DNA of 63,969 nt, filler included, from an uncultured Methanosarcinales archaeon (GCA_964550945.1; 3 parts of 3 records of this genome joined end to end with filler, not necessarily neighbours in it), one strand, 5' to 3'. Numbered from the whole stretch's first letter, positions 8,699 to 39,777 are shown. The notes: a model not told the origin generated them from the letters alone. Translations and numbers: made by a program.

Positions 8699-8700
8699 AA

Positions 8701-11178: not shown

Positions 11179-11216
11179 TTTTCTTGTTAACAACCAAAAC
11201 ATATAAATATAACCTA

Positions 11217-11258: not shown

Positions 11259-11259
11259 C

Positions 11260-11856: not shown

Positions 11857-11857
11857 A

Positions 11858-12469: not shown

Positions 12470-12511
12470 AAGAATAAGTTTAAAAATGATGTTGCCATAA
12501 CTTATAATAAG

Positions 12512-14388: not shown

Positions 14389-14441
14389 AAGTTTCAATAA
14401 GATTTATATAGTCAAAAGATTTAAGCAAAAGAGGTGATAAA

Positions 14442-14639: not shown

Positions 14640-14818
14640 AGGAGAAGGAAGCGTGATTGCCTCCTCCTTCTTAGTACTAAAATAGATTGAGTGCATCACC
14701 TCCATATTGGTTATATTATTTTTTATAGTATGGCTTTTATAAATACGTTGTGAAATGTTGGTAGAGAATAGGGATTCACAAAACGTTTAAATGAAATTGA
14801 GGAGTTGTTAACTGCAAA

Positions 14819-15499: not shown

Positions 15500-15768
15500 A
15501 CTTAAGAAGAACAAAAATTGAAATAATTAACGATATACTGAAATCAATACAAGAAAAAGGAGGTAAGATTAAGCCCACTCATCTTCTGTATAAATCTAAT
15601 CTGTCTCATACAAAAATGAAAGAGTATGTCAGCGAACTAAAGAATAAAGAGATGATTTCTGAGGATCTGGAAGACGAAAACAGGTATTTTAGGATAACAG
15701 ACAAAGGCCTTAAATATATATCAGAATACAAGAAGATAATGGAGTTTTCAGATTCTTTTGGTTTGTAA
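15496..15768 (+). CDS. Archaeal winged-helix transcriptional regulator
   Basis: RRTKIEIINDIL...KPTHLLYKSNLS...ITDKG pattern. Confidence 0.85.
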   Translation: MNLRRTKIEIINDILKSIQEKGGKIKPTHLLYKSNLSHTKMKEYVSELKNKEMISEDLEDENRYFRITDKGLKYISEYKKIMEFSDSFGL

Positions 15769-15953
15769 AAATATATAGATGTATAGGCGGAAGCGCCTTC
15801 TTCTAAAACAATTAAGTTGGGTTTAGTAGATTTAAATGCGTATATGCCATTTAAAAACCTTATGAATCTCAGTTCCCTATCCTCACTTCATAATCTATTT
15901 ATAAGCCCTCGATTAAGTATATACTACAACTAAACACCTTTGATGATAAATTC

Positions 15954-15994
15954 GCTGGCTTCAGGTTTGAGACACCTCTTTTCCTGAAGCCAGC
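15954..15994 (+). other. Strong GC-rich hairpin followed by a T-tract (possible sRNA or terminator)
   Basis: Perfect 12-bp stem GCTGGCTTCAGG/CCTGAAGCCAGC. Confidence 0.55.
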
Positions 15995-16059
15995 AAACCT
16001 CCCTTTTTCTTTTAAAACAAAAGCTTTTTATTTGATTAGGAATTCTTGTCAGTAGTAAA

Positions 16060-16947
16060 ATGGCAGAAAATACTGAAAAAGGAACTTATCTCTTAAAGAA
16101 AGGCCTGGCTGAGATGCTAAAGGGCGGCGTAATCATGGATGTTGTTGATGCGCAGCAGGCAAAGATAGCTGAGAAAGCCGGAGCAGTAGCAGTTATGGCT
16201 CTAGAAAGGGTCCCTGCTGATATCAGGGCAGATGGTGGGGTTGCCAGAATGTCTGATCCAAAGATAATCAAGCAGATTATGAGCGCTGTTTCCATACCAG
16301 TCATGGCAAAATGCAGGATAGGCCATTTTGCAGAAGCGAAGATATTGGAAGTGTTAGGTGTTGATTATATTGATGAAAGTGAAGTTCTAACGCCCGCAGA
16401 TGAAAAACACCATATCAACAAGCGCTTATTTAAGGTTCCTTTTGTATGCGGAGCTCGTGACTTAGGAGAAGCGCTAAGGCGGATTAACGAAGGAGCAGCA
16501 ATGATAAGGACTAAAGGAGAAGCTGGAACAGGCAATGTTGTAGAGGCTGTGAAGCATATGAGAATGATGAATGAGCAGATTGAAAGTTTAAAAAATAAGG
16601 GCTATGAGCATCTTGAGAAGATTGCAAAGCAGATGAGGGTTCCGGTTGCTTTAGTGAGAGAAGCTGCTAAGCTTCAAAGATTGCCTTTGGTGAATTTTGC
16701 AGCTGGGGGCATTGCAACGCCCGCAGATGCAGCAATGATGATGCATCTTGGCTGCGATGGCATATTTGTTGGCTCAGGAATTTTTAAATCTACAGATCCT
16801 GAAACACGGGCTAGAGCAATAGTTGAAGCTACAACCCATTTTGACAATCCATCAATTTTAGCTAAAGTCTCAGAAGGTATTGGAGAGCCAATGAAGGGCT
16901 TGGAAATATCAAAATTAGACACTAAAATGCAAGACAGGGGAGTTTAA
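16060..16947 (+). CDS. pdxS: Pyridoxal 5'-phosphate synthase lyase subunit
   Basis: [41 protein letters not shown]. Confidence 0.98.
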
Positions 16948-16951
16948 TTCT

Positions 16952-17524
16952 ATGAAAATAGGGGTATTAGCCCTGCAAGGGTCAGTTATAGAACATATAG
17001 ATACTCTGAAGAAATTAAAAGTAAATGCTGTAGAAGTAAGGCTGCCAGAAGAGTTGGATGATCTAGATGGATTGATTATTCCTGGCGGTGAATCAACTAC
17101 TATTGGGGATCTAATGAATCAATATGGTTTAGATAAAGGTATAGTTGAAAAATATAACAAAGGCATGTCAATATATGGAACGTGCGCAGGAGCTATATTA
17201 TTAGCAAAATATGTTGATTTTGTCCAGCCAAAGCTTGGCTTGATGGATATCTCCATAACTAGAAATGGTTATGGGAGGCAGATTGACAGTTTCGAAGCTG
17301 ATTTGAATATTGAAAAAATAGGAAAATTTAGGGGGGTTTTTATCCGAGCTCCAATAGTAGATTGTGTGCATGATGGTGTTAAGATACTTGCCCAATTCAA
17401 CAACATGCCAGTTATGGCAGAGCAAGGCCATTTGCTAATCACAACATTCCATCCAGAACTAACTGATGATACAAGAGTGCATAAATATTTCATTGATATG
17501 GTGAAGTTTAACAGGATGTTGTAG
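16952..17524 (+). CDS. pdxT: Pyridoxal 5'-phosphate synthase glutaminase subunit
   Basis: GVLALQG, PGGESTT, GTCAG, FIRAP, FHPEL. Confidence 0.98.
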   Translation: MKIGVLALQGSVIEHIDTLKKLKVNAVEVRLPEELDDLDGLIIPGGESTTIGDLMNQYGLDKGIVEKYNKGMSIYGTCAGAILLAKYVDFVQPKLGLMDISITRNGYGRQIDSFEADLNIEKIGKFRGVFIRAPIVDCVHDGVKILAQFNNMPVMAEQGHLLITTFHPELTDDTRVHKYFIDMVKFNRML

Positions 17525-17535
17525 ATTTATGATGC

Positions 17536-18807
17536 CTATTTGCTGTCTTTCACAAAAACAGCAATCTCCATTTCTGTTTTGCCATGCATAATCTTTCTTT
17601 CGTGGTTTACTTTAAATTTATATTTTTCAGCAGACTTTCTAAGAAGCGCTGTTGAAGGGCTTATTAAGGTTACACTTCCACTCTTTTTTAATATGTATTC
17701 TGCCTGATAAAACAGGTTATCATACATCTTTTCTATGTCTTTAGGGTTAGTGTTCTGCGTTAATTGAGGCGGCTGGGTGATTATCTTGTCCACAGAGCAT
17801 TTCTTAAATTTTATATCAACCCAGTCGATATCCACCCTGCTGAATGTGATTTGCTTTTGGATTCCTGCGATCTTTGCATTCTTTCTTGCTGATTGGATGT
17901 AATGCAGAACAAGGTCATATCCATATATTCTTGTTTTTTTCTTGCTAATCTTTTTATCCACTTCTTTAAAGAGTTTGTCAAATTTAATTTTTTGAAGCTC
18001 TTTCAGTTTTAAAAATTGGAATTTTTCCTTTCTGTAGAAGTTTATTGGCATTTTAGCGGCAAAGAGAGCTGCTTCTATTAAGATTGAGCCTGAACCGCAG
18101 AAAGGATCAAGCGATAGGTCTTCTGGTTCATACCCTGCTATTCTTGATAAAGAATACGCAATAGTCGCCCTTAATTCACGCGGGCAACAGAATATCCTGT
18201 AATCCCGTTTATGCAAATCAAACCCAGACAGATCGATGCCAAGATAGCACATACCATTGATAATGTAAACAAAGAGAATAACATCCGGGTTTTCAAGATC
18301 CACCTTTTGTGCATATTTTTTTTCTTTTTTTATTCTGTCGATGATCAGTTCTCCTACTCTTGCGTTAATTTCTTCGCTGTTTATGGCGTTATCAATTTTT
18401 TTATTTGATATCCTGAATGTTGTTTTCTTGTCCAGCCATTCCTGAAGCTTAATCTTGTTTACAATCCCGCTTATTTTTGTGTAAAAATCTTCAGGATCAC
18501 TAAAACAAAAATGGCCTAATAACAGAAGAATTTTTTCCAATGACTGCGCTTCATAACACAGCTTGCATAAATCCAAAATCTCTTTTGTTTGGATTATCAC
18601 ACAGCCTTCTTTAATGTCTGTTTTTGCTTTTGTGATTTCCTTTATGTCAAAAATCGAAGATTCATCAAAAATCATAGATTTTTGAGTGTGATCAAAAAAG
18701 CTTTGCTTTTTTGACATTTGAGCATACTCAGAAATCTTTAGGATTTCTGATATTTCAAGAGCAGCTATATCTTCTATTCCTTTTGAGGTTATTGCAAGCC
18801 CTTCCAT
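17536..18807 (-). CDS. THUMP-domain RNA methyltransferase (Trm14/RlmL-like) with in-frame palindromic insertion
   Basis: VDLENPD, LHKRDYR, DPFCGSGSILIEAA; motif IV reads QPPQ. Confidence 0.85.
   Translation of the reverse strand: MEGLAITSKGIEDIAALEISEILKISEYAQMSKKQSFFDHTQKSMIFDESSIFDIKEITKAKTDIKEGCVIIQTKEILDLCKLCYEAQSLEKILLLLGHFCFSDPEDFYTKISGIVNKIKLQEWLDKKTTFRISNKKIDNAINSEEINARVGELIIDRIKKEKKYAQKVDLENPDVILFVYIINGMCYLGIDLSGFDLHKRDYRIFCCPRELRATIAYSLSRIAGYEPEDLSLDPFCGSGSILIEAALFAAKMPINFYRKEKFQFLKLKELQKIKFDKLFKEVDKKISKKKTRIYGYDLVLHYIQSARKNAKIAGIQKQITFSRVDIDWVDIKFKKCSVDKIITQPPQLTQNTNPKDIEKMYDNLFYQAEYILKKSGSVTLISPSTALLRKSAEKYKFKVNHERKIMHGKTEMEIAVFVKDSK
18646..18750. repeat. 105-bp array of short palindromes inserted in frame, flanked by 3-bp direct repeat
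   Basis: TCAAAAATC-ata-GATTTTTGA, TCAAAAAAGC-ttt-GCTTTTTTGA, TCAGAAATC-tttag-GATTTCTGA; TAT on both sides. Confidence 0.8.
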
Positions 18808-21236
18808 TAGCTTTCTCTTATGATTTTTGCTGCTGAGACCAATGTATCCTTTTCTGCTAATCTCATTATTCGCGAGCCTTGTGTCGCCCTGCCTATGACA
18901 GATATTTCTTTTGCTTCTGTCCTCAGGACTATCCCGTTTTTGCTTATAAATATAAGCTCATCATTTTCAGTGATTGGAATTATTGAAACCACTTTGCCGT
19001 TTCTCTCTGAGCAGAGTATATTCCTGACACCAATACCCCCCCTATTTGTTAATCTATACTCAGAAACAGTTGTTCCCTTTCCAAAACCATTCTCTGTTAT
19101 TGTAAGCAACGTCTTTTTATCGTCTGCTTTTACAGCTCCAATAACCTCATCATTATCTTTTAAGGTTATTCCTCGGACACCTGTAGCAGTCCTCCCCATT
19201 GACCTTACTGTCTGCTCTTCAAATCGGACAGCCATTCCGTTTTTTGTTGCAAGTATTATTTGCTGGCTGCCATCTGTTAGCTCTACACCAATCAATTCGT
19301 CTCCTTCTCTCAATTCACAAGCGATTATTCCTGTGCTCCTTGGATTTTGGAAGTGGATAAGATTTGTTTTCTTGATTACGCCTTTTTTGGTCACCATAAC
19401 CAAGAAATGAGAGTCATCAAATTGTTTAACTGGTATGTGGGCTGTGATTTTCTCATCCTTTTCTAATCTTAATAGGTTGATTATTGCCTTCCCCTGGGCA
19501 ATTCTTGAAGCTTCTGGAAGGTTATAAACCTTAAGCCAGTATACCGCGCCTTTGTTTGTAAAGAACAGTATATCTGAATGGGTATTGGCTATAAATATGT
19601 CCTCTACAAAGTCTTCTTCTTTTGTTTGTGTTGCTATTATGCCCTTCCCTCCTCTATGCTGCGATCTGTATGTGGCCATTGGCTGCCTTTTTATGTATCC
19701 TGAATGAGTTATTGTTATTACCATATCTTCTGGCTTTATTATGTCCTCCATTGAAAAGTCTGTCATCTCCATCTGGACAAGCTCTGTCTTTCTTGCATCG
19801 CCATATTTTTCTTTTAATTCCTGCAGCTCCTTTTTTATTATCTCAAATATTTTTTGTTGAGAAGCTAAGATTGATTTTAACTCTTCTATTAGCAATAAAA
19901 GCTTGTTCTGCTCCTCTTTTATCTTGCCCTGCTCTAAAGATGTTAAGCGTTGCAGCTTCATATCTAAAATAGCAAGAGCCTGCTCTTCTGTAAATGTGTA
20001 TTTTGAGATTAAGGATTTTTTTGCTTCTTCTGCCTCTTTGCTTTCCTTGATAAGTTTTATTATCGGATCAATATTGTTTAAAGCTATTATTATGCCTTCA
20101 AGTATATGCGATCTCTTTTGGGCTTTTGATAGGTCAAATTGCGTGCGCTTGGTCACAATATCTTTTCTGTGGTCAATATAGCACTGGATCAGCTGTTTTA
20201 AGGTTAAGACTCTTGGCTCGTTATTAACTAATGCGAGCATGATCACTCCAAATGTGACTTGTAATCTTGAATGCGCAAATAACTGGTTTAAGACTATTTG
20301 AGGGCTTGCATCCTGCTTAAGCTCAATCACTATTCTAAGGCCTTCTCTATCTGATTCATCCCTTAAATCCGAGATTCCTTTGATGTTTTTATCCCTGACA
20401 AGATCTGCTATCTGTTCCAATAGCTGGGATTTGTTCACCATATATGGGATTTCTGTCACTATTATGCGTCCTTTTTCTTGTTCGATAACCGTTTTTGCCC
20501 TTACAGAGATATGGCCGCGGCCAGTTGAGTACGTGTTTACTAATTCACTTCTGTTGCAGATTAGCGCTCCAGTTGGAAAATCCGGGCCTTTTATGTGCTG
20601 CATTAACTCCATTATGTTTATACCTGGATTGTTTATTTGCGCAATTATCCCATCTGACACCTCATTTAGATTATGAGGAGGGATGTTAGTTGCCATACCA
20701 ACCGCAATGCCGCTGCTCCCATTGACTAATAGATTTGGCAGCTTTGAAGGCAATACAGTTGGCTCTTGCAATGAAGCATCGAAGTTAGGTGTGAATTTGA
20801 CAGTTTCTTTGTCTATGTCTTGCAGCATTTCCTCTGAAAGTTGAGTAAGCCGAGCTTCAGTATACCTCATGCTGGCTGGTGGATCCCCGTCTATGCTGCC
20901 AAAATTTCCTTGCCCCTGTATTAAGAGGTATCTTAATGAGAAATACTGGGCCATCCTTACTAATGAATCATAGACAGCCATATCGCCATGTGGATGGTAT
21001 TTGCCTAATGTGTCTCCTACAATTCTCGCTGATTTCTTGAATGGCTTATTGTGGAACATGCCGTTCTCATTCATAGAGAAAAGGATTCTCCTGTGGACAG
21101 GTTTTAGGCCGTCTCTTGCATCCGGCAATGCCCTTCCAACAATAACAGACATAGCATAATTTAAGTAAGATGTTTTCATCTCGTCTTCTATTATTCTCAC
21201 TTTTATGTTTTCAGTTTTTTGATTAGTTTCTTCCAT
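18807..21236 (-). CDS. gyrA: DNA gyrase subunit A
   Basis: [28 protein letters not shown] (catalytic Tyr), GyrA-box QHRGGKG, beta-pinwheel repeats. Confidence 0.97.
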
Positions 21237-21393
21237 TTTGTTAGAATGCCCTATAACTTAAAAATGAGAGTTGATTTATATATGTTTTGGTTTTGAATTT
21301 TGCGTTTATAGGGCGTATAACCTAAGAATTTTGATGTTTCACAGAAATAATTTTAAAATGAGATAATACTTACATTGTAAGTAAAAACCCAAT

Positions 21394-21753
21394 TCAAGAA
21401 ATAGTTTCAATGTATTTTATAATCCCTTCAATTTGCCTTAATTTTGTTTTTTTAATCAGGAATTCTCTAAAAGAATTATCTATCCTGACTCCAAATCTTT
21501 GCAGATCAGAATATAATCTTCCGTAAAGTTTTTTTCCTTCCCTATCAAGGTCAGTTAGAATAATAACTTCCTTATTGTCTTCAGCTATGTGTTCAGTTAT
21601 GTGGAACAGCGGTTTTTTGCTTAAAGTTGCTATATTGGTTATACCTAACTTTTCAAGAGCTTTTTTGTCTTTATTTCCTTCAACGATTATTAATTTGTCA
21701 GATGATTTTAGTTTTTCTATTTGTTCTAATAATTCTTGTTTTGTTTGTTTCAT
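21394..21753 (-). CDS. Small Toprim domain protein (RNase M5-like)
   Basis: IIVEGNKD and ILTDLDREG. Confidence 0.88.
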   Translation of the reverse strand: MKQTKQELLEQIEKLKSSDKLIIVEGNKDKKALEKLGITNIATLSKKPLFHITEHIAEDNKEVIILTDLDREGKKLYGRLYSDLQRFGVRIDNSFREFLIKKTKLRQIEGIIKYIETIS

Positions 21754-21754
21754 T

Positions 21755-21988
21755 TGGTTTTTGAGTTTACGAAGTATTGTTCGCCTAGGATAGTAGCTGG
21801 TAATAGTTTATTATTGTTTATTATTAATAGTTATTTTTTGATTTTTATATAATGGTTAATAGTCCACCATTGATTTTAAGATTACTGATGCTTTTTTTAT
21901 GTTAAATTGTTTATTAATCTTTTGACTTTAAGTTATTATGGGTAATATAATCATTTTTTTATTATTGACTGAAAATCACATTTTCACA
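21755..21988. repeat. Dispersed ~230-bp non-coding element, copy A
   Basis: Collinear similarity to the reverse complement of 44868-45092. Confidence 0.75.
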
Positions 21989-22035
21989 ACCTTAAAAAAC
22001 AAATAATTAAATATATTTGTTGTTTTCCTGGCAGT

Positions 22036-23523
22036 ATGCTAAGTATAAGCACGATTCTAAGCCATTATAAGAGGAGCGATATTCAAAAGGCTATAATTGA
22101 TAATGCAAAATCCAGAGAGGTTGCAATTAAATTTGGGGATAAGGGTTTTGGAAAAAGGCCTGATGTCCTTAATTACCCTAAGGACATTTTAGAACTTGCT
22201 AAACAAGGCGCAACAAGTTTTCATGCTTCTGAGGAATTGTGGAAAAATCCCTTGCAATTAGATCCTGACATGAAAAAGGCAGAAATTGAAGAGCTAAGGC
22301 TTGGCTGGGACCTTATTCTGGATATTGACGCTAAGGAATGGAATATTTCAAAGATCACAGCCTGGCTTATAATTGAATCATTAAAGAAGCACGGCATTAA
22401 GTCAATCAACTGCAAATTCAGCGGCAATAAAGGATTTCATATCGCAGTCCCTTTTGAAAGCTTCCCGACAGAGATAAATGGCCAGGAAACAATAAACGGG
22501 TTTCCTGAGATGCCAAGAAACATCGCAAAATATCTTCTTGATTATATCAGCGCTAATTACATCAAGATAAAAGGTGACGATAAAATCACTTTTGGAGATA
22601 AGTTTGATGTCAGTTTTTCAAGGCTGAAGGAGATTACCGGCAAAGATGTTAATGAGTTGACTGACAAGATATGCTCTAGCTGCAATAAGATATTCAATGA
22701 CGGCAGAGAAACAATCGAATTTGTCTGCCCTAAATGCGAATCCTCTATTAAAGTAAATGAAAAATTCAAAAAATGCGAAAAATGCAAAGTTTTTATGCAG
22801 AAAATAGAGCACAGAAAAACAAAATGCAGCTGCGGCTCTGGCAATTTTTATAGGAGATTCAATCCTTTATCGATTATTGATGTGGATACCATCCTGATAA
22901 GCTCCAGGCATTTGTATAGGATGCCTTATTCATTGCATGAGAAATCTGGCTTAGTTTCTATTCCAATTGATCCTGAAAGAGTGCTAAAGTTCAGCAAGAA
23001 GATGGCTGAGCCAGGACTCGTAAAAGTCAGATTTTCATTTTTGGACAAAAGCAAAGCGATTAAAAATGAAGCAAAAGAGTTATTGGAGAGGGCTTTGAAG
23101 TTTGAAGAAAAAGAGAAAATGATGGAGCCAAAAGAAAAAAAATTTGAAGCGCCGACAGAAGCCATGCCAGAGCAGTTTTTCCCGCCGTGCATTACAAATA
23201 TACTTTTAGGCCTGGAAGATGGAAGAAAAAGAGCGTTATTTATCCTGACAAATTTTCTGACAAGCACTGGCTGGAACTATGAGATGATTGAAACCAGGCT
23301 TAAAGAGTGGAATAAAAAGAATAAAGAAGAGCTCAGAGAGGTGCTGGTAAAAGGCCAGGTAAGATACAACAAGCAAAGAAAAAAAATGATATTGCCGCCA
23401 AACTGCCAGAATAAGATGTATTATATCGACCTAGGCATATGCAAACCAGATAATTTGTGCAAAAGAGTTAAAAATCCTGTTAATTATTGTCTTGTTAAGG
23501 CTAGAGGGATGAAGAAAGGATAG
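22036..23523 (+). CDS. Fused archaeo-eukaryotic primase (PriS-PriL) with Zn-ribbon insertion
   Basis: WDLILDID, KFSGNKGFHI, RHLYRMPYSLH; PriL C-terminal FPPCI, GRKR, PPNC, CKPDNLC, KNPVNY. Confidence 0.92.
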   Translation: MLSISTILSHYKRSDIQKAIIDNAKSREVAIKFGDKGFGKRPDVLNYPKDILELAKQGATSFHASEELWKNPLQLDPDMKKAEIEELRLGWDLILDIDAKEWNISKITAWLIIESLKKHGIKSINCKFSGNKGFHIAVPFESFPTEINGQETINGFPEMPRNIAKYLLDYISANYIKIKGDDKITFGDKFDVSFSRLKEITGKDVNELTDKICSSCNKIFNDGRETIEFVCPKCESSIKVNEKFKKCEKCKVFMQKIEHRKTKCSCGSGNFYRRFNPLSIIDVDTILISSRHLYRMPYSLHEKSGLVSIPIDPERVLKFSKKMAEPGLVKVRFSFLDKSKAIKNEAKELLERALKFEEKEKMMEPKEKKFEAPTEAMPEQFFPPCITNILLGLEDGRKRALFILTNFLTSTGWNYEMIETRLKEWNKKNKEELREVLVKGQVRYNKQRKKMILPPNCQNKMYYIDLGICKPDNLCKRVKNPVNYCLVKARGMKKG

Positions 23524-23611
23524 GAGGTTATATGGAATACTACAACTAAGTATGCTTTAGTTATTATTTTAACAAAAGTTTAATAATCTCCAAAAGATTT
23601 ATTGTAATAAA

Positions 23612-24064
23612 ATGAAGATAAACGATATAATGCATAATATAATAAAAGTGCCGCCAGATATAGCTATAATGGAAGCTGCAAAACTAATGGACCAGAAAGG
23701 GATAGGCTCGCTTGTTGTTGAAGAAAGCGGAGAGATAGTAGGTATAATGACAGAACGAGACATTTTAAAAAAAGTTGTTGCTGCTGGCAGAAGATGTGAA
23801 GAGACTATAGTAAAGGACATCATGACTTCTCCCCTCATCACCATAGATCTGAATGATAGCATAGAAGAAGCAAGCGAGTTAATGGCTGTCCACCATATAA
23901 GAAGGTTAGTTGTTACTGAAAAAAGCGAGGTTGTGGGGATAATAACCTCAAGAGACCTAGTGGATACACTAAGGTACTCATTAAGCAAAAGTATTAAAGA
24001 TCTTGGCATTACAAATTACAGGCCTGATTATAGCAGAGATATAGCAAAGAACACCAATAATTGA
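23612..24064 (+). CDS. CBS domain pair protein
   Basis: IGSLVV..GIMTERD and IRRLVV..GIITSRD. Confidence 0.92.
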   Translation: MKINDIMHNIIKVPPDIAIMEAAKLMDQKGIGSLVVEESGEIVGIMTERDILKKVVAAGRRCEETIVKDIMTSPLITIDLNDSIEEASELMAVHHIRRLVVTEKSEVVGIITSRDLVDTLRYSLSKSIKDLGITNYRPDYSRDIAKNTNN

Positions 24065-24106
24065 GCAATGCATAGTGTGTTCTTTGCTATTACGAACGAG
24101 CATATA

Positions 24107-24206
24107 NNNNNNNNNNNNNNNNNNNNNNNNNNNNNNNNNNNNNNNNNNNNTTAATTAATTAANNNNNNNNNNNNNNNNNNNNNNNNNNNNNNNNNNNNNN
24201 NNNNNN
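24107..24206. other. Artificial contig-joining linker
   Basis: N44-TTAATTAATTAA-N44 (stop codons in all six frames). Confidence 0.95.
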
Positions 24207-24314
24207 CATATAGGCATAAATAGATACGCCTATTTAAATAAACTGTGAAAGTTTAGTTATGTTTTGATTAAAACAACCAAAATATATTTAAACTGGCTGA
24301 TTATCTGTTTTGAT

Positions 24315-24761
24315 ATGCAAATAATCATTGGCTCAGACCACGCAGGCTTTGAATTAAAAGAAGCAATTAAAAAATACCTGAACCATGACAAAATCCAGTT
24401 CAAGGATCTTGGAACAGATAGTACAGAAAGCTGCGACTATCCTAAAATTGGCTATGAAGTTGCAAAAAAAGTTGCTTCTGATTTGAAGAATAATAAGGGA
24501 ATCTTAATTTGCGGTACTGGTATCGGAATGTCCATTGTAGCCAATAAGGTTAAAGGCATAAGAGCAGCTCTTTGCTATAATGAAGAAACCGCGCAATTAT
24601 CCCGCCTCCATAATGATTCTAACCTACTGTGTTTAGGCTCTCGGCAAATAAGCACAAAACTAGCCTTAAAAATTACCAAGATATGGCTTGAAACAGAGCC
24701 TAGCAAAGAAGAGCGCCATACGAGAAGAGTAGGCCAAATTAGAAAAATAGACAAATGCTAA
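24315..24761 (+). CDS. rpiB: Ribose-5-phosphate isomerase B
   Basis: IGSDHAG, DYP, ICGTGIGMSIVANK, RLHND, RHTRR. Confidence 0.96.
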   Translation: MQIIIGSDHAGFELKEAIKKYLNHDKIQFKDLGTDSTESCDYPKIGYEVAKKVASDLKNNKGILICGTGIGMSIVANKVKGIRAALCYNEETAQLSRLHNDSNLLCLGSRQISTKLALKITKIWLETEPSKEERHTRRVGQIRKIDKC

Positions 24762-25321
24762 CTCTAACCTATATTTTATCATCAATTGCGTGTTTCCTAG
24801 GCCTTATCTTTGGGATGATCCTCATCTTTATAGCTCCAGAAGAGCAGAAGCCAGGGAAAAAATATTTTATCTTGTTAGAAAATATTTTCTTAATCTTAAT
24901 GACCCTTTTTTTATTGATCTATTTTTATTATTATAAGCTGTTTAGTGTAGTTTATGTTTTGTTATGGTTGTTTTTTATAATGTTGCTTATCTTTTCATTG
25001 ATGGATTTGCTGAACAGCATATCCCCATTTTTCAATAAAAGATTAAACATTAATAAGGAAAGCAAACTTATAGGATTAAAACGTAGAATTAAAAACCATT
25101 ATTCAATCTACTCAATCTTAGCGCTCATTTTCTATTTAAGCTACCAAAACAAAAACCTTTTTTTTATTGAGTCAACTCTTATCTTCTTATACGGGCTTCC
25201 AATTGGCTCATTACTAGCTGAGCATAAGGACAAAAAACAAAACATAATAACAGTCCTAAAGCATATGCACTTTCTGATCATAGCATTGCTTTTAGGGTAT
25301 CTACCATCTATCTTTGCTTAA
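24755..25321 (+). CDS. Multi-pass membrane protein, unknown function
   Basis: About six TM segments; overlaps rpiB stop. Confidence 0.7.
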   Translation: MLTLTYILSSIACFLGLIFGMILIFIAPEEQKPGKKYFILLENIFLILMTLFLLIYFYYYKLFSVVYVLLWLFFIMLLIFSLMDLLNSISPFFNKRLNINKESKLIGLKRRIKNHYSIYSILALIFYLSYQNKNLFFIESTLIFLYGLPIGSLLAEHKDKKQNIITVLKHMHFLIIALLLGYLPSIFA

Positions 25322-25870
25322 CTTTAACTTATAAGCTATAGTCCTATTCGTGATATGTATCAAGAAACTTACTATCAACACAGTTACAAACATGATTAGA
25401 GTTGGTCTAAATAAAGGCAAAATAAACACAAAGCCCCCAATAACAGAATCAATCTGGTCCCAGGGCATAAATGGCTTTCCAGGATCTATGCCAATCTGTC
25501 TTTTAAAAAAACTCTTAACCAAATCACCAAACAAAGCGCCAAACCCCATCAGGAATCCAAACAACAAGATGTCTATTCCATAATAATCCACAAAACTCAA
25601 ATTATGGAAAGATCTGGATTGGTATAAAAATTTCTGCAGATAAGCAAATATTATGCAGACCAATACTCCAGATACAAAGCCGCGATAAGTTTTATTCTTT
25701 CCAAACAAAGGTTTTCCCTTAAATGTTTTGCCAAAATCAACAGGTATAGCTAACCATTTGAAATGATCTTTGACAAAAATGGGGGTCATTACTGCAAAAG
25801 CTCCTGGCACTATAAAGTAAATGCACTTTAAAATGTAAAACAAAACTTCTTCTATCACCTTCTCCACCAT
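25301..25870 (-). CDS. carS: CDP-archaeol synthase family (CarS) cytidylyltransferase
   Basis: PVDFGK, GKNKTYRG, GALFGDLVKSFFKRQIG, DQID, KDRW C-terminus. Confidence 0.9.
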   Translation of the reverse strand: MVEKVIEEVLFYILKCIYFIVPGAFAVMTPIFVKDHFKWLAIPVDFGKTFKGKPLFGKNKTYRGFVSGVLVCIIFAYLQKFLYQSRSFHNLSFVDYYGIDILLFGFLMGFGALFGDLVKSFFKRQIGIDPGKPFMPWDQIDSVIGGFVFILPLFRPTLIMFVTVLIVSFLIHITNRTIAYKLKLSKDRW

Positions 25871-26910
25871 CTCCTCACTTTTATAGCCGCTTTTGGGCAG
25901 TATTCATGGCAGCAATAGCATCTGATGCACTTTTTATAGTCAAATTCTGGATAAGGATCCATTTTAATCGCTCCGGCCGGGCAAATATTAAAGCACGCTC
26001 TGCATTTTATGCATCTCTTTGTTATTAATATAGGTTTCGGAATAAATATGTTCTTTGCTAGCACACTTCCGTAATAAGCAAGCTTATTGGATTTAGAAGG
26101 AGCTTCAAATTTAGTCCTGAACTCATCAAGATCCCCAATAACCTCAATATCGCTAACTAACTTCCTTCTTTTTGCGATATCCACTAAAGGCACTTTTAAT
26201 CCAGTAATCTGGGCAGCAATAACATCCATCGCAATATGGTCATTAGATGCCATTATCAGATTAACCTTTTTTACAGTTCCTGAAGATGGCCCTTGGCCTT
26301 CCATCGCTTCAACAGCATCACAGATGTTCAGGCATGGCTTTATCAGTATTCCCAGATCAATCAGCATCTCCGTGAATTTATATGGATTAGTTATCCTTAA
26401 ATGGCACTTTGGCTTATCCATCCCAGGAATAAAGCCGAATAAGTTCTTAGTAGCGTTAGTCATTATTGTCAAAGAATGAGTTTTCAGCTTGGGTATATTG
26501 ACAATCTTATCATACTTTAACACTTCTTCGCATATTATAAAGCTTTTTATATTTCCCTTATCATTCTTTACTCTGACACCTTTGCCTAAATCACTCAGCC
26601 TAACCTTATGCTTCTTGCACACCTCTAGTATTCCGGCCTTTTTTGCAATCCTCTCAACACTTCCCATTGCAGGGCTATCCCCTACAGTAATCTTATCAGT
26701 CTGTTTTTTTACAAGTTTGATGACAGCATCAACCACAGCAGGATTTGTTGTAACCGCTTCTTCTGCCGTTCTAAGCTGTAGCAGATTTACTTTTATTAGT
26801 ACCTTTTCATCCTTTTTTATATACTCTTTAATATCTCCGACAGCTTCAGCCACAGCGCTATCAGCATCTCGATAATTTTCGCATCTTACCAGTTTAACTT
26901 TTGTGCTCAT
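25855..26910 (-). CDS. DUF362 protein with C-terminal 2[4Fe-4S] ferredoxin
   Basis: VLIKVN, TTNP, PKLKTH, KNLFG, MEGQGPSSG; two CxxCxxCxxxCP motifs. Confidence 0.88.
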   Translation of the reverse strand: MSTKVKLVRCENYRDADSAVAEAVGDIKEYIKKDEKVLIKVNLLQLRTAEEAVTTNPAVVDAVIKLVKKQTDKITVGDSPAMGSVERIAKKAGILEVCKKHKVRLSDLGKGVRVKNDKGNIKSFIICEEVLKYDKIVNIPKLKTHSLTIMTNATKNLFGFIPGMDKPKCHLRITNPYKFTEMLIDLGILIKPCLNICDAVEAMEGQGPSSGTVKKVNLIMASNDHIAMDVIAAQITGLKVPLVDIAKRRKLVSDIEVIGDLDEFRTKFEAPSKSNKLAYYGSVLAKNIFIPKPILITKRCIKCRACFNICPAGAIKMDPYPEFDYKKCIRCYCCHEYCPKAAIKVRRWWRR

Positions 26911-27533
26911 ATTCTTTTCTTGGCGCAACTCAATAATAATCCTAGGGGATTTGTCAATGAAGCGCCTTCAACTTTTGTAGCTTTTTTTTGGATGGCTTTT
27001 CTCAGATTGCCTTCAAAAATTGTAGCAGCCCTGCCAACCTCAAACCCAAAATGCGCATCAGAGCCAGCTGTTTTTGCGAGTTTCAACTCATTCGCAATAT
27101 TATTTGCCTTGTTGTTCTCCCAATAAAATGTTCTGGCGTTTACACATTCAATGGCATTGATCCTATCTGAAATATCTTTGATTGGATAATTGAACCTACT
27201 AATCTTAAATGGCCTGAAAGGATGGGCTATTGATACGATTGCATCCTGCTCTTTTGCCTTGTCTAAAACAGTAAAGAGCTCTTTTGAATTTATCTCTTCT
27301 TCAAGATAATAAATTAAAACATCGCCATAATCTGTTCTGATCTCACTTGCTAGGATCACCTCAAAATCATCGTCTTTATTCAATTTCCTGGCTTCTTTTG
27401 CCCCAATCATTGTGTTGTGGTCAGTTACAGCAATGCCATCAAGGCCTTTTTTCCTGGCTATCTTTAACAATATCTCAGGTTTTAATGCGCTGCACTTTGA
27501 ATATTTTGTATGGGTATGCAAATCATATCTCAT
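26907..27533 (-). CDS. PHP-domain metallophosphoesterase
   Basis: DLHTHT, TDHN, AHP, GSDAH. Confidence 0.92.
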   Translation of the reverse strand: MRYDLHTHTKYSKCSALKPEILLKIARKKGLDGIAVTDHNTMIGAKEARKLNKDDDFEVILASEIRTDYGDVLIYYLEEEINSKELFTVLDKAKEQDAIVSIAHPFRPFKISRFNYPIKDISDRINAIECVNARTFYWENNKANNIANELKLAKTAGSDAHFGFEVGRAATIFEGNLRKAIQKKATKVEGASLTNPLGLLLSCAKKRI

Positions 27534-28143
27534 TTCTAAGCCTCGCTATCTCATTCATTAGCTTGTCAACAGAGTTTCTTAATCGTTTCTTATCATATAT
27601 TTGTGTATAATCTAAATATATTGGTTTTCCTATATTAACTTTAATCAATTTTTTATATTTTCTGGGAATCCATTTTTCCATCGGAAGGATTTGATAGGTA
27701 TTTTTTAATCCTACTGGCAGGATAGGCGCTTTTGCAGCCAATGCAATTCTAATGACTCCTGTTTTTCCCTCTATCAGTTTTGCATCTTTCTTTGGGCCTT
27801 CTGGAAATATACCCACAATGCTCCCTTCTTTTAATTTATCAATTGCTTCTTTTATAGCAAACTCTTTCCTCTCATCAAAATAAACCGGAATGCCCCCAAG
27901 CCAATATTGCCAGATAACCTTCCTAAAACTGCTTCTAAACAGTTTTGCCAATGCCAGGTAATGCACTTTTTTATTTGCAGTTCTCCACATAATGACCATC
28001 ATTAAAATGGGATCAATGTAACTTTCATGATTAGACGCAATAATAAAAGCCTCATCTTTAGGGATATTTTCTATGCCTTTAATCTTTTTCACAAATGGAT
28101 TTAATAACAAATAAATTGCTCTTTTTGTTATCGGATAAACCAT
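27523..28143 (-). CDS. plsC: Lysophospholipid acyltransferase (PlsC family)
   Basis: NHESYID (HX4D), IFPEG, KTGVIRIAL, PILPV. Confidence 0.9.
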   Translation of the reverse strand: MVYPITKRAIYLLLNPFVKKIKGIENIPKDEAFIIASNHESYIDPILMMVIMWRTANKKVHYLALAKLFRSSFRKVIWQYWLGGIPVYFDERKEFAIKEAIDKLKEGSIVGIFPEGPKKDAKLIEGKTGVIRIALAAKAPILPVGLKNTYQILPMEKWIPRKYKKLIKVNIGKPIYLDYTQIYDKKRLRNSVDKLMNEIARLRNEI

Positions 28144-28144
28144 T

Positions 28145-29230
28145 TTACAATTCTTCCATGATTTTTACAATTTTATAAGCAGCGTCAGGTTTTGCAAAAT
28201 TTTTCAGTTTTTCTTTGAATGGCTCTAATTTAGATGGCTTGTCTAACACTTCCTTGATAGTTCTTACAAACTCCTTGTCATCCTTGGGCATCATAACCTT
28301 ATCTTTTAAAAATGTTGCATTCTCCCATTCAGAGCCAGCAACGCCTTTTACTAAAACCATTGGCAAATTTTTCGCAGCAGCCTCGCATATTGTGGAGCCA
28401 GATGGTTTAGTTACCAGCAAATCAGACATTTGCATATATTCATCAATATTATCTACATATCCAAGAATCTTAATCTTTTTTGTGAAATTTGATTTTTTAA
28501 GCTCGTTCATCAATTTTTTATTCAAGCCCGTAACAACAATCATCTGGAATTCATTCTCAATAGTATCTAACGATTTTACAACATCCTTAATAGGCCCAAA
28601 TCCGAACCCACCGCCCATTATTAATACTGTGTTTATATCTTCTAAGCCAAACTTCTTTCTTAGCAATAACTTATTTTTTTTGTTGGAAAATTGAGGGCCT
28701 ATTGGCAATCCAGTTACATCTATCCTATCCTTAGGGATTCCCCGCTTTATTAAGAAACTCTTAGATTCTTCTGTAGCAACTGCAAACATGTCAACATTTT
28801 TGTGGACCCAATACCTATGCACCACCATATCAGTCGGAACTGCAACTAATCTTATATCGCTGCTTTTTCTTAAAATTGAACTCATACCACAAGGAAAAGC
28901 ATGGGTGCAAACAATAATATCTGGCTTAAAAGATTCGATAGTTCCAATAAATTTACCTAAATTAATTTTTTGAAAAAAACTTACAAATACTTTAGAAACT
29001 TGGTATATCACTTCGTTATCGTACAGTAAGTCATATACCTTAGGGACATATTTGTTTGTTTTTAAGTACAAACTCTCGATTAATTTTTTTACTTTTGGGA
29101 ATTTTTGTTCAGAAGGGTCTATGCAAAGGGTATTCCAGTCAGGATGTTTGATTTTTATTGCATTCTCAATAGCTTCTGCAACTCTCTTATGCCCTGTGCC
29201 AATTGATACATACAAAAATAAGATATTCAT
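28145..29230 (-). CDS. Diacylglycerol glycosyltransferase (MGDG synthase/UgtP-like, GT28)
   Basis: GTGHKRVA, VCTHAF, PTD..VHRYW, TGLPI, MGGGFG, TKPSG.T..EA. Confidence 0.88.
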   Translation of the reverse strand: MNILFLYVSIGTGHKRVAEAIENAIKIKHPDWNTLCIDPSEQKFPKVKKLIESLYLKTNKYVPKVYDLLYDNEVIYQVSKVFVSFFQKINLGKFIGTIESFKPDIIVCTHAFPCGMSSILRKSSDIRLVAVPTDMVVHRYWVHKNVDMFAVATEESKSFLIKRGIPKDRIDVTGLPIGPQFSNKKNKLLLRKKFGLEDINTVLIMGGGFGFGPIKDVVKSLDTIENEFQMIVVTGLNKKLMNELKKSNFTKKIKILGYVDNIDEYMQMSDLLVTKPSGSTICEAAAKNLPMVLVKGVAGSEWENATFLKDKVMMPKDDKEFVRTIKEVLDKPSKLEPFKEKLKNFAKPDAAYKIVKIMEEL

Positions 29231-29844
29231 TTTGCTAAATTGTATACCCTTTTAATGATATCATTCGCGATATGCCCCAAATCCTCTCTTTTGGATCCTA
29301 ATTGCTCCCAAAGAATAGGCTTGCCAATCCTTATTTTGACGATTCTCTTTAACGCTTTAGGTTTTAATTTCAAAGCAGGTAACACCTTTGCTGTGTTTTC
29401 CAGATAAATAGGGATTATTGGCGCTTTAGAATCTAAAGCTAGCCTAGCAACACCTGCCCTTGGTTTTCTCTCTTTTTTTGTCAGTTCGCCTTCAGGAAAT
29501 AAGGCAACTATCTCTCCATTTTTTAAATGAGTTATTGCTTCATTTAATGCGCCCTTTCCTTTGTCAGCCTTGTCTAAAGGGATACATCCAGCCCATTTTC
29601 TGCATATAATATCTCCCAATTTCCAGAAATTTCTTTGAGCAGCATCCCTAATAGCAATAAATCGTATTTTCCTGTTAATCTTAGGGATTACCACAGAACA
29701 TATCACCATAGGATCCAAGTAACTTTCATGATTAGACGCAATAATAAATGGCCCTTTTGCAGGAATATTTTCTAATCCAGATAACTCTTTGATAAAGAGC
29801 CTAAAAAATGGAAAAATTGCTAGTTTTGTAAAGGGATACACCAT
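29227..29844 (-). CDS. plsC: Lysophospholipid acyltransferase (PlsC family), second paralog
   Basis: NHESYLD, LFPEG, GVARLAL, PIIPI. Confidence 0.9.
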   Translation of the reverse strand: MVYPFTKLAIFPFFRLFIKELSGLENIPAKGPFIIASNHESYLDPMVICSVVIPKINRKIRFIAIRDAAQRNFWKLGDIICRKWAGCIPLDKADKGKGALNEAITHLKNGEIVALFPEGELTKKERKPRAGVARLALDSKAPIIPIYLENTAKVLPALKLKPKALKRIVKIRIGKPILWEQLGSKREDLGHIANDIIKRVYNLAK

Positions 29845-29930
29845 AAACCACCCTAACTTACATTATTTTAAATATTTTATGGTGGTTTCAACAGAAAATT
29901 ATATATAATAGATGATGTGGAAATGTCTCT

Positions 29931-30464
29931 ATGGAAACCAAACTGTGGAATATTCCAAACGTACTCACAATAAGTAGATTCCTCTTCTCACCTTTGTTCT
30001 TGTACTTCTTCCTTGTAGATAAGATAGAGTTAGCCTTAATAGTCTTTATGTTTGTTGCTGTAACAGACTTAGCAGATGGCTGGATTGCTCGCTCAACAAA
30101 CCAAAAGACAAAATTTGGCGAATCCTTAGATCCAATGGCTGATAAGTTTATGATATTTCTGGCTTTGGTTGCTGTCTGTATCAAATTCAGCTTTCCTGTC
30201 TGGGCAATCCCTCTTTTTATATCCAGGGACATTATTTCATTGGCTGGTTCAATATTGATATACACCAAGCATAAGGGCGTGTGGAAAGCAAATAAACTAG
30301 GTAAATTAACCACATTCCTCCAGATAGTATCTATCTTAGTATTTATCCTTAATATGAGCTTTAAAATGATTGTTCTTTGGATTACAATCATCTCCAGCAT
30401 AACAGCAGCAATAGCATACTTGATCAGGTGGATAAACATAGCCAGAAACAAAACAAAACCATAA
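29931..30464 (+). CDS. pgsA: CDP-alcohol phosphatidyltransferase (PgsA/Crd1-like)
   Basis: NIPNVLTISR, TDLADGWIAR..NQKTKFGESLDPMADK, GKLTTFLQ. Confidence 0.88.
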   Translation: METKLWNIPNVLTISRFLFSPLFLYFFLVDKIELALIVFMFVAVTDLADGWIARSTNQKTKFGESLDPMADKFMIFLALVAVCIKFSFPVWAIPLFISRDIISLAGSILIYTKHKGVWKANKLGKLTTFLQIVSILVFILNMSFKMIVLWITIISSITAAIAYLIRWINIARNKTKP

Positions 30465-30496: not shown

Positions 30497-31969
30497 ATGG
30501 CAAATACAATATTAGATTGTTATACAGACGAACCCTCTGGGTTAGGCGTTCCCCCTTACTTGGGAGTCTATCCTAGATACCTTTACGGTTATTTAGAAGA
30601 TGCATATTACTTGACAATAGACGATATAAGGTATTTCTTTGGTTTTGTCTTAAACAATAGAAGGTATGATATTCAAAGGCAGCAAAAGACAAACATCAAA
30701 ATATACAATCTAACCAAAAACATTGGCAGCATAAAGGATATCCTGCAAAATACTCAAAATCTTTACATTATTCTCGGTGTCCATACTCCTGGAAAATACC
30801 TAAGCGCTGTTCCTGGAACTCTGCATGAGGTTGCTTTATTGTTAAAAGAAATCAAACAGATTAATAACCGCATAAACATAATCTTAACTGGTCCAGCGTT
30901 ATACGGCACTCAGCTTTATGGTGGAAAATTCTCAGAAAAAATTGACTTGAGCATGTTTGGCAAAACAGCAGATATTGATTTCAGTTATGATGATACTGCC
31001 AAATATGCTTTGAAAGGAGCATCAATCATGCAACAAATACCTGATTTAAGGATTATAGAGATAGAAACCAGCAGAGGCTGCAATTATGGAAAGTGCAGCT
31101 TTTGCACAGAGCCGATAAAGCATAGATTGGAGTTTAGAGATCAAGAAGACATAATCAATGAAATAAGGTCCTTTTATGAGCTGGGAGTTTATTATTTCAG
31201 GCTTGGAAAACAATCAGACATCTATTCATATCCTAATTTGATAGCATTACTTAAAAAAATAAAGGCAGAATTTCCAAAAATCAAAGTTTTGCATGTAGAT
31301 AATGTAAACCCTAAATCAGTAATAAAAGAAAACGGAGAAAAAATTACTCAGGCTATTGTTGAATATTGCACTGCTGGCAATGTTGCTGCTTTTGGAACTG
31401 AAAGCTTTGACGAGAATGTTGTCAAGGAAAACTGCTTAAACTCCAGCCCAGAGGAATCATTTGAAGCCATAAAAATTCTGAACAGATATGGCAGCGAAAA
31501 AGGGGATAACGGAATGCCAAAGTTCCTTCCAGGCATTAACATCCTGTTTGGCTTGAAAGGCGAGAATAAAGAAACCAACCAAAGAAATATGGCTTGGTTA
31601 AACAAGATTCTTGCAGAAAATTTATTGGTCAGGAGGATTAATATACGCCAGATCTCTATTTTTGAAGGAACGCCTTTATATAGAGAGTGCGGCGACAAAT
31701 TTCTCAGGAAAAACAAGAAGTACTATTGGAAATGGCGCAATGAAATAAGGCAAAAGATAGATTTTCCTGTGCTGCAGAAATTAGTTCCAAAAGAATCGAT
31801 ATTAAAAGATGCAAGAGCAGAAATTTACGACGGTAAAACTACTTTTTTAAGGCAGATTGGCACATATCCGCTAATAATAGGGGTCAAAAAAAGGCTAGAG
31901 CTCGGAAACTTCTATAATACTCAAGTCATAGACCATATGCTTAGGAGTGTTGTTGGAGAGGTTGTTTGA
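30497..31969 (+). CDS. Radical SAM protein with TRAM-like C-terminus
   Basis: LDCYTDEPSGLGVPPY, ETSRGCNYGKCSFC, FRLGKQ, RRINIRQ. Confidence 0.88.
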   Translation: MANTILDCYTDEPSGLGVPPYLGVYPRYLYGYLEDAYYLTIDDIRYFFGFVLNNRRYDIQRQQKTNIKIYNLTKNIGSIKDILQNTQNLYIILGVHTPGKYLSAVPGTLHEVALLLKEIKQINNRINIILTGPALYGTQLYGGKFSEKIDLSMFGKTADIDFSYDDTAKYALKGASIMQQIPDLRIIEIETSRGCNYGKCSFCTEPIKHRLEFRDQEDIINEIRSFYELGVYYFRLGKQSDIYSYPNLIALLKKIKAEFPKIKVLHVDNVNPKSVIKENGEKITQAIVEYCTAGNVAAFGTESFDENVVKENCLNSSPEESFEAIKILNRYGSEKGDNGMPKFLPGINILFGLKGENKETNQRNMAWLNKILAENLLVRRINIRQISIFEGTPLYRECGDKFLRKNKKYYWKWRNEIRQKIDFPVLQKLVPKESILKDARAEIYDGKTTFLRQIGTYPLIIGVKKRLELGNFYNTQVIDHMLRSVVGEVV

Positions 31970-38924: not shown

Positions 38925-39491
38925 TTATTTTACATAAGCTTTTTTGATTATAACTGGGTCAACAGGAACATCATCAAATCCATTCTTAGTTGCGGTCTTA
39001 ACTGATTTGATCTTATCAACAACAGATGTTCCAGATATTACCTTTCCAAAAACAGCATAACCATAGCCTCTTGATGTTTCATCTGTATGGTCTAAAAAAG
39101 CATTATCAGCAACATTTATGAAAAATTGTGATGTAGCGCTATCAACAACCATTGTTCTTGCCATCGCAATTGTATACTTTTCATTCTTCAATCCATTTCC
39201 AGCTTCATTCTTTATTGGCCCTTTAGTCTCTTTTTGGATCAGCTCCTGGTCAAATCCTCCTCCTTGTATCATAAAATCACTAATGATCCTATGGAATATC
39301 AATCCGTCATAAAACCCCTCATTCACATAAGATAAGAAATTGTCAACAGTTATTGGCGCTTTATCTTGATATAGCTCAACTTCAAAATTCCCCATATTTG
39401 TCTCAAAAACAATAGCCTTATTTTTCATTTTATCCTCAGCTTGGCTGCATCCAACCAACAATAATAATATGACTATCCAGCTTATTCTCAT
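38925..39491 (-). CDS. ppiA: Cyclophilin-type peptidyl-prolyl isomerase with lipoprotein-like signal
   Basis: FHRIISDFMIQGGG, IAMART, SATSQFFIN, GYAVFGKV; N-terminal LLLLVGC. Confidence 0.92.
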   Translation of the reverse strand: MRISWIVILLLLVGCSQAEDKMKNKAIVFETNMGNFEVELYQDKAPITVDNFLSYVNEGFYDGLIFHRIISDFMIQGGGFDQELIQKETKGPIKNEAGNGLKNEKYTIAMARTMVVDSATSQFFINVADNAFLDHTDETSRGYGYAVFGKVISGTSVVDKIKSVKTATKNGFDDVPVDPVIIKKAYVK

Positions 39492-39492
39492 T

Positions 39493-39777
39493 CTAAACCG
39501 CCTTAGGCCCTTTAAAATATCCATCCTTTTTGTGCTCTGTGTTAGCTAATGCCTCTTCCTGTGATAAGCTATCTTCTACAACATCTTCTCTCATATATTC
39601 CTTCAGCTCAACAGGCTGAAAACTCGGCTTAACATCTTTTGTATCAGCTTCATCTATCCTAGAAAATGCATTAATAATCTCTTTTAGTTCAGGCAGGAAT
39701 CTTTCTATCTCTTTCTCGCTTAACTCAAGCCTAGCTAATTCAGCTACTTTTTTAATCATATTTTTATCTATCTGCAT
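39493..39777 (-). CDS. gatC: Asp/Glu-tRNA amidotransferase subunit C
   Basis: VAELARL, MRED, GYFKGPK. Confidence 0.95.
   Translation of the reverse strand: MQIDKNMIKKVAELARLELSEKEIERFLPELKEIINAFSRIDEADTKDVKPSFQPVELKEYMREDVVEDSLSQEEALANTEHKKDGYFKGPKAV

Follow-up and report, generated by a model that had tools for sequence, protein, structure and literature searches.

The window analysed here, a stretch of 63,969 nucleotides from the genome of an uncultured archaeon (GCA_964550945.1, labelled Methanosarcinales; G000 in our set), carries at positions 25301 to 30464 a cluster of seven lipid genes that includes carS, the gene for a CarS-family cytidylyltransferase. We propose, with moderate confidence, that this cluster is the head-group half of a bacterial-type route to fatty-acyl ester lipids in a small-genome DPANN archaeon, with a CarS predicted to activate phosphatidic acid (PA) and not digeranylgeranylglyceryl phosphate (DGGGP). 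The carS-pgsA-PHP core would complete a pathway of which the first half is encoded at a distance, on scaffold C19 of this genome. The genome, 92.5% complete with 2.3% contamination, likely belongs to the Woesearchaeales, an order name taken from the Woesearchaeota and Nanoarchaeota labels on the PHP and CarS homologues. A bacterial-type ester-lipid route had been suggested in an earlier note on this DNA, and that suggestion is supported here, with changes in the roles given to several of the genes.

The earlier note had described six tightly coupled minus-strand genes with a pgsA gene divergent across 86 bp, and the open reading frames (ORFs), their order and their spacing were confirmed. Each of the seven proteins scores above its Pfam cut-off, and the gaps between successive minus-strand genes are -4, +1, -11, -4 and -16 bp (negative values being overlaps). 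The genes are as follows:

25301..25870, minus strand: carS, CarS-family CTP:lipid-phosphate cytidylyltransferase (PF01864, 104 bits, cut-off 22)
25855..26910, minus strand: DUF362 plus 2x[4Fe-4S] ferredoxin gene, ATG start (Pfam DUF362 and Fer4)
26907..27533, minus strand: PHP-family metallo-phosphoesterase (PF02811/PF13263)
27523..28143, minus strand: plsC, PlsC-family acyltransferase of the carS-slot paralogue group, motif III FPEGPKK (Pfam Acyltransferase)
28145..29230, minus strand: GT28 UgtP/MGD-like glycosyltransferase (PF06925, MGDG_synth, 108 bits)
29227..29844, minus strand: plsC, PlsC-family acyltransferase of the carS-slot paralogue group, motif III FPEGELT (Pfam Acyltransferase)
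29931..30464, plus strand: PgsA-type CDP-alcohol phosphatidyltransferase (PF01066, CDP-OH_P_transf)

As judged by its modelled five-helix fold and by profile, the window CarS is a member of the CarS family and not a CdsA. In a VIA-align search the model (pLDDT 96) aligned with A. pernix CarS (5GUF) over 150 residues (Z 19.4, rmsd 2.0) and with T. maritima CdsA over 133 residues (Z 7.9, rmsd 3.8). By alignment the active-site residues D116, D138, D141, K60, K123 and R124 are kept; their A. pernix counterparts are D100, D122, D125, K57, K107 and R108, whose roles in that enzyme we take as given. The match to CdsA profiles is partial (CTP_transf_1, PF01148, 40 bits) or far below cut-off (NF008635, 24 versus 385 bits), and the score of 126.2 bits against the CDP-archaeol synthase equivalog NF003114 is below its cut-off of 148. 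The fold model leaves the choice of substrate undecided. We consider the window CarS likely to be a CDP-diacylglycerol (CDP-DAG) synthase acting on PA, as the earlier note had suggested, because no source of DGGGP was found and CarS is the sole PF01148 CTP-transferase match in the genome; its gene neighbourhood points the same way. Among the ether-lipid genes, neither UbiA (the family of digeranylgeranylglyceryl phosphate synthase, DGGGPS) nor Fe-ADH_2 (glycerol-1-phosphate dehydrogenase, G1PDH) gave a match in this genome, and the only PcrB match, sought as geranylgeranylglyceryl phosphate synthase (GGGPS), was a weak one of 68 residues in a HisA-like protein, presumably HisA itself; therefore no source was found for DGGGP, the known CarS substrate.

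Candidates for these enzymes in the relatives were rejected. Fe-ADH_2 matches in 22 of 26 relatives were weak (E 5e-14 or worse), and all four that were tested proved to be AroB; UbiA matches occurred in 16 of the 26, but none of ten tested reached the DGGGPS cut-off, being MenA-like, DPPR-synthase-like or unassigned. At one locus (L151, G074:C23) adjacent genes encode a polyprenyl diphosphate synthase, a UbiA-family protein and a geranylgeranyl-reductase-family protein, in a genome without a GGGPS match. Three close CarS homologues (P0032, P0120 and P0422) are labelled Patescibacteria (Candidate Phyla Radiation, CPR), one of them fused to a CDP-alcohol transferase, and at two archaeal loci of the order (L092 and L099, in separate genomes) carS has a sigma-70-family gene next to it.

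The two recurrent partners of CarS are a PgsA-type protein and a PHP protein. The PgsA-type protein scored 101.6 bits against TIGR00560 (cut-off 109.1), 22-39 bits against archaeal models and 88 bits against a ClsA-type model with a cut-off of 240; it carries the CDP-alcohol transferase motif and matches the PgsA structure 7DRJ (E 9e-12). Its proposed function as a head-group transferase is supported, and it is likely a phosphatidylglycerol phosphate (PGP) synthase. The PHP protein, whose nearest named homologues are from Woesearchaeota or Nanoarchaeota, has a PHP domain with motifs that we take to be its metal ligands. That fold rules it out as one of the known PGP phosphatase types (PgpA, PAP2, HAD); PHP is not mentioned in the available part of the PgpP paper, and PgpA was not found in 27 genomes. 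The PHP gene appears to occupy the place of a lipid-phosphate phosphatase, because PHP alternates with a PAP2-like DUF212 gene beside carS, and CarS itself is found fused to PAP2 or DUF212 (nine of 12 long CarS homologues; two others are fused to a CDP-alcohol transferase). The protein is thus a candidate PGP or PA phosphatase, and the earlier suggestion to this effect is plausible.

This core recurs across families of the order, which was sampled with 301 genomes; the tallies include the unpublished genomes G111, G120, G131, G182, G205, G207, G209, G244 and G273. The carS locus was mapped in every relative with both CarS and a close GpsA (at least 49% identity), 21 in total: a PgsA-family gene is near in 19, PHP is no more than two genes away in 14, a single PlsC is present in six and GT28 in two, and neither two PlsCs nor the DUF362-ferredoxin was seen in any. 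When the unpublished G131, G207 and G209 are left out, the counts for PgsA, PHP, PlsC and GT28 are 16, 11, 4 and 1 of 18. Among the 51 carS loci with the best scores (a single locus for each genome), carS has a CDP-alcohol transferase no more than two ORFs away in 31, PHP in nine and PAP2-like DUF212 in eight, never both (the scan covered 131 of 142 unlabelled neighbours; the other 11 belonged to three redundant loci and were dropped). Of the seven-gene operon drawn in the earlier note, carS, pgsA and PHP recur across families, but the exact order was found in 0 of the 21 relatives' loci; the operon as drawn is genome-specific, and its conserved core is carS-pgsA-PHP. The carS genes mostly sit in one slot, bounded here by:

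24264..25321, plus strand: rpiB and a gene for a 188-residue membrane protein (mem188, 24755-25321), left boundary
30497..31969, plus strand: radical SAM protein, right boundary

The rpiB-mem188 pair stands beside carS in most relatives' loci, and radical SAM orthologues (46-66% identical) close the slot in many. Both mem188 (without a family match in Pfam, a further profile search and the Atlas) and the radical SAM protein are slot boundaries in many relatives; a connection with lipids is possible for either.

That the cluster is a chance assembly of unrelated passengers, foreign DNA, or a set for acylation outside the membrane is in our judgement very improbable. The lack of the exact seven-gene order in relatives and the presence of a passenger gene (see below) agree with it, but the recurrence of carS-pgsA-PHP at one slot across families largely refutes it, and the nearest named PHP homologues are archaeal. 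The window joins three scaffolds with N-linkers at 24107-24206 and 47426-47525; the lipid locus is on scaffold C21 (window 24207-47425), which also encodes FtsZ, a rad3/XPD helicase and GatB. The earlier note had called this contig archaeal: FtsZ and XPD bear this out, but the tRNA introns that it cited were not confirmed; ARAGORN, which may miss intron-bearing tRNA genes, gave a count of 0 for the window. The GC content of the lipid genes (33-39%) is like that of the flanking genes, and contigs from three public metagenome runs (two studies) have similar depth over both. These contigs run across several of the gene junctions, among them mem188-carS-DUF362, plsC-pgsA and rSAM-ftsZ; none covers the whole stretch, and the best-matching runs are possibly the source sample itself. 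Contamination was rejected on these grounds together with the recurring synteny. No RNA dataset was among the public runs listed as carrying the locus; a promoter scan of the 86-bp gap with a bacterial model gave 2 sites, against 2.1 in shuffled sequences.

The other half of the proposed pathway would lie on scaffold C19 of the same genome, which encodes GpsA and a likely acyl-CoA source. The cluster is as follows:

C19, acyl-CoA-building locus at 5400-25385: acetyl-CoA carboxylase (ACC) parts, BirA, FabZ, two thiolases, a Zn-ribbon/DUF362 protein and a Vor-type oxidoreductase
C19, same cluster: FabG, acyl-CoA dehydrogenase with EtfBA, plsC-plsC and gpsA, ending at an archaeal-type rpS2

EtfA is apparently split over two ORFs in this genome, and ACC has no obvious user there if condensation is of the thiolase type; Vor could supply branched primers. 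Elsewhere, scaffold C147 encodes a PssA fusion and Psd, both over NCBIfam cut-offs, Dxr is encoded, and two Lgt homologues are present, one over the TIGR00544 cut-off (C3:18563-19336) and a divergent one on C1; a simple pattern gave lipobox-like motifs in 20 of 1,981 ORFs. Acyl carrier protein (ACP) was found in one of five genomes searched, which was not this one, and PlsY in none of the five; a PlsB-sized acyltransferase and CdsA were not found in this genome, and PlsX, FabH and FabF were not searched for. The earlier note had looked to a host for acyl donors. Against this, the sole AMP-ligase of the genome is an acetyl-CoA synthetase, no long-chain acyl-CoA ligase that could activate fatty acids from a host having been found, and a de novo acyl-CoA cluster is present on C19.

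The gpsA-linked PlsC pair on C19 is a better candidate for making PA than the pair in the window. Both window PlsCs keep the HX4D and FPEG motifs, as had been reported, and they are 40% identical to each other; against TIGR00530 (cut-off 103) they score 61 and 65 bits and the C19 pair 45 and 93 bits. In a tree of 62 PlsC proteins, built without a bacterial outgroup, the two gpsA-linked types are apart from the carS-slot group (support 99/89), in which both window proteins sit on long branches. The motif-III Arg, which binds the phosphate of lysophosphatidic acid (LPA) in TmPlsC (R159; PMC6688108; bioRxiv 2021.02.05.429882), is missing in both window PlsCs, while all 18 rows of one gpsA-linked type have it and so do 18 of the 19 rows of the other; nine further rows without gpsA linkage comprise five that keep the Arg but have Gly for Glu and four without the Arg. 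The plsC gene adjoins gpsA in 21 relatives' loci where both were seen, none of them unpublished, and 15 of the 21 are near rpS2. The claim that the window PlsCs make PA is not supported, the Arg being absent, the plsC-plsC-gpsA unit being separate and conserved, and paired PlsCs being absent from the relatives' carS loci. The window pair is probably accessory, with a role in secondary acylation or remodelling, or on other acceptors (lyso- or non-phosphorylated).

In another reading, bacterial host lipids (PA, diacylglycerol, lyso-lipids) are taken up, re-acylated and given new head groups, with no bulk membrane lipid made de novo. PlsC-family proteins occur in 138 of the 301 genomes, CarS in 144, GpsA (E<=1e-20) in 65, GGGPS (E<=1e-15) in three and CdsA (E<=1e-14) in two, and Lgt in 160 of 171 genomes searched, most of them without a de novo cluster (among 14 controls only the 10 bacterial ones were positive). 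Close GpsA is present in 27 genomes, this one included. The wide occurrence of Lgt, the missing LPA-phosphate Arg of the window PlsCs and the published view that these lipids are host-derived (PMC11868695; PMC8421398) agree with such salvage, and it is probably true for relatives without a C19-type cluster. For this genome we consider it unlikely, though the strongest of the alternatives: ACC, chain-building enzymes, gpsA and the plsC pair stand in one conserved cluster, and the ligase that imported fatty acids would call for was not found.

Several points weigh against the route that we propose. CarS is present in 22 of 27 genomes with close GpsA, 21 of 38 with distant GpsA and 101 of 236 without a GpsA match (the last figure again favouring salvage); CarS is therefore independent of de novo PA. 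The association of CarS with GpsA (Fisher p 0.001) is not relied on, since kin are not independent. In family f119 (G118, 97% complete; G199, 92%; G258, 79%) the gpsA cluster is present, neither CarS nor CdsA was found, and CDP-alcohol transferase matches are weak; both enzymes were also not found in the close-GpsA genomes G215 (96%) and G140 (59%). The f119 misses count against CarS being indispensable; the slot there holds PlsC with GT2 or PHP, which suggests glycolipid-based membranes or a different kind of PA activator. The canonical ether-lipid route was not found in a genome that is incomplete, and a catabolic or fermentative role would also suit the C19 enzymes, Bcd-Etf being treated as energy metabolism by Huang 2021 (PMC8421398). 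The enzyme steps themselves are read from gene content, motifs, fold, synteny and profiles among kin that are not independent of one another. Within CarS, Val27 stands where 112 of 117 homologues have Asn (A. pernix N28); Val or Ile is also found there in three other CarS proteins of 61-80% identity. Activity on PA is deduced by exclusion and is contrary to the only existing assays: according to a review, the A. fulgidus enzyme shows selectivity for DGGGP as against bacterial PA and gave no complementation of E. coli cdsA (PMC9385802). The same source reports that CarS activity of M. thermautotrophicus shows no strong selectivity against ester or glycerol-3-phosphate (G3P) analogues of DGGGP, and that the grooves of CarS are wider than those of CdsA.

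These assays would fit a mixed membrane, in which CarS remains DGGGP-specific and acts on ether lipid from an archaeal host, and the cell's own acyl-glycerol becomes diacylglycerol glycolipids through PHP and GT28 only. Fold and motifs both identify the protein as a CarS, characterised CarS enzymes prefer DGGGP, and the f119 slot keeps PlsC with PHP or GT2, without carS or pgsA. This is nonetheless improbable to us, given a PgsA that scores far better on bacterial than on archaeal models, the TIGR00544-level Lgt, and GT28 in so few of the relatives' slots (2/21) that most relatives would have no mapped PA sink.

Two further genes of the cluster lie outside the core. The GT28 protein, in which both the MGDG_synth and the GT28 C-terminal domains are present, is closest among solved structures to UgtP (9WDE, E 1e-36) and MGD1 (E 2e-29), and scores 224 bits against the UgtP/MGDG synthase equivalog (cut-off 500). 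Beyond two close relatives its named homologues are bacterial, with up to 41% identity. It groups, at moderate support (89/82), with the copies that G131 (unpublished) and G264 carry in the slot; the one match in a search of 60 relatives, in G016 (E 1e-28), is away from lipid genes and on a long branch, and a scan of named genomes with a back-translated GT28 pattern gave one distant actinobacterial locus only. The gene likely arrived by one transfer from bacteria and is predicted to encode a diacylglycerol glycosyltransferase; the earlier assignment is supported with this origin. The DUF362-ferredoxin had been taken for a lipid-modifying step, which the comparison with relatives does not favour. 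It belongs to a family widespread in anaerobic bacteria, with orthologues in 12 of 26 relatives that lie beside the gene for phosphoglycerate kinase (PGK) in 10 of the 12; psd and pssA are two genes from it in three relatives of one family. It is probably a passenger inserted in the cluster of this genome and no lipid enzyme.

In the route that we propose, the C19 enzymes (thiolases, FabG, FabZ, Bcd-Etf) would build acyl-CoA without ACP, the genes being present and the direction presumed; GpsA would make G3P, and the C19 plsC-plsC pair would acylate it twice to PA. CarS would then convert PA to CDP-DAG, for want of another candidate. Judging by their families, PgsA would make PGP, PssA and Psd (C147) would make phosphatidylserine (PS) and phosphatidylethanolamine (PE), and PHP would dephosphorylate PGP or PA. 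Finally, GT28 may glycosylate diacylglycerol, and Lgt may use phosphatidylglycerol (PG) to lipidate lipobox proteins. The window PlsCs would serve as accessory acyltransferases, with the DUF362-ferredoxin as a passenger. A cyclophilin with a lipobox-like signal (window 38925-39524), on the same scaffold, is a candidate Lgt substrate.

Other features of the window were noted outside the cluster. Tandem repeats of about 294 bp (89-99% identical) lie within large ORFs around an assembly gap at 60458-61705, with related copies on scaffold C114; two 270-bp copies, about 78% identical and 605 bp apart, lie at 46375-47249 among small ORFs without family assignment; and on the neighbouring scaffold one ORF (22036-23523) matches both the small and the large primase subunits (fused primase).

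Eukaryotes descend from archaea yet have bacterial-type membranes, and we know of no archaeon with a membrane of that type. A wider proposal, which we put forward tentatively and rate somewhat below evenly balanced, is that a multi-family archaeal lineage has a membrane made wholly by itself of G3P fatty-acyl ester lipids (PG, PE and glycolipid), with Lgt-anchored lipoproteins, a CarS re-specified to PA and PHP as a new lipid phosphatase family, the rest of the order living on lipids from bacterial hosts. If true, an archaeon would stand on the bacterial side of the lipid divide, and a living lineage of this kind would show that cells can survive such a membrane switch and which enzymes were exchanged or put to new use in it. 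Bacterial partners or a free-living way of life would then be suggested, and the statement that these Woesearchaeota are unable to make membrane lipids, their lipids being host-derived (Huang 2021, PMC8421398), would be overturned. Only archaeal lipids are reported in cultured Lokiarchaeota (EMBO Rep 2026). The locus is a variant of known lipid pathways and partly anticipated in print: PlsC in DPANN (Coleman 2019, PMC6431249), GpsA with fatty-acid genes in some Woesearchaeota and CarS-family members in 42% of Woesearchaeota and 10% of CPR (Castelle 2021, PMC8204110, the latter in Table S3), FabG, FabZ and cyclopropane synthase in Woesearchaeota (Zhang 2024, PMC10936187), Mss/Ger homologues interpreted as enzymes that modify host lipids (PMC11868695), and methylerythritol phosphate (MEP) genes among the bacterial-lipid-related ones (PMC6431249; PMC8204110; PMC10936187; PMC11868695). 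Neither the complete route nor the CarS switch to PA was found proposed in our literature search, which had subscription papers and bioRxiv supplements outside its scope, nor in the available portions of PMC13691511, PMC13400652, PMC11804483 and PMC7852524. Archaeal Lgt homologues are stated to be unknown by Hong 2025 (PMC12462473), with which the canonical-scoring Lgt of this genome and the 160 positive genomes contrast.

In comparison with known systems, the archaeal route (G1PDH-GGGPS-DGGGPS-CarS; A. pernix 5GUF, A. fulgidus) shares with this locus the CarS fold, the acidic catalytic residues and the downstream CDP-alcohol transferases. It differs in that G1PDH, GGGPS and DGGGPS were not detected here, the window CarS is below the equivalog cut-off with Asn27 replaced, and its gene neighbours are those for PlsC, UgtP-like and bacterial-like PgsA proteins. 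From the bacterial phospholipid route, GpsA, PlsC-family, PgsA-like, PssA, Psd, UgtP-like and Lgt proteins are all encoded in this genome, whereas ACP, PlsY, a PlsB-sized acyltransferase, CdsA and PgpA were not found, and the plsC pair, CarS and PHP would stand in for them. The ACP-independent fatty-acid synthase of Sulfolobus acidocaldarius (ketothiolase and DUF35; bioRxiv 10.1101/2024.07.05.601840), in a preprint whose available part has no mention of DPANN, Woesearchaeota or PlsC, shares thiolases and CoA-based chemistry with the C19 cluster, whose Zn-ribbon protein is likened to DUF35 by its N-terminus (Pfam gave DUF362 only); unlike that synthase, the C19 thiolases are linked to ACC, FabZ, Bcd-Etf, plsC-plsC and gpsA. 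The Woesearchaeota lipid genes in the literature, as far as the available texts go, are treated piecemeal, with host-derived lipids or no membrane synthesis as the conclusion and no complete route proposed. The bacteria of the Fibrobacteres-Chlorobi-Bacteroidetes (FCB) group with archaeal ether-lipid genes (Villanueva 2021, PMC7852524) are likewise a mosaic across the lipid divide, in which CdsA is proposed to act for CarS; the present locus would be the reverse case, since here it is CarS that is proposed to act for CdsA, and in an archaeon.

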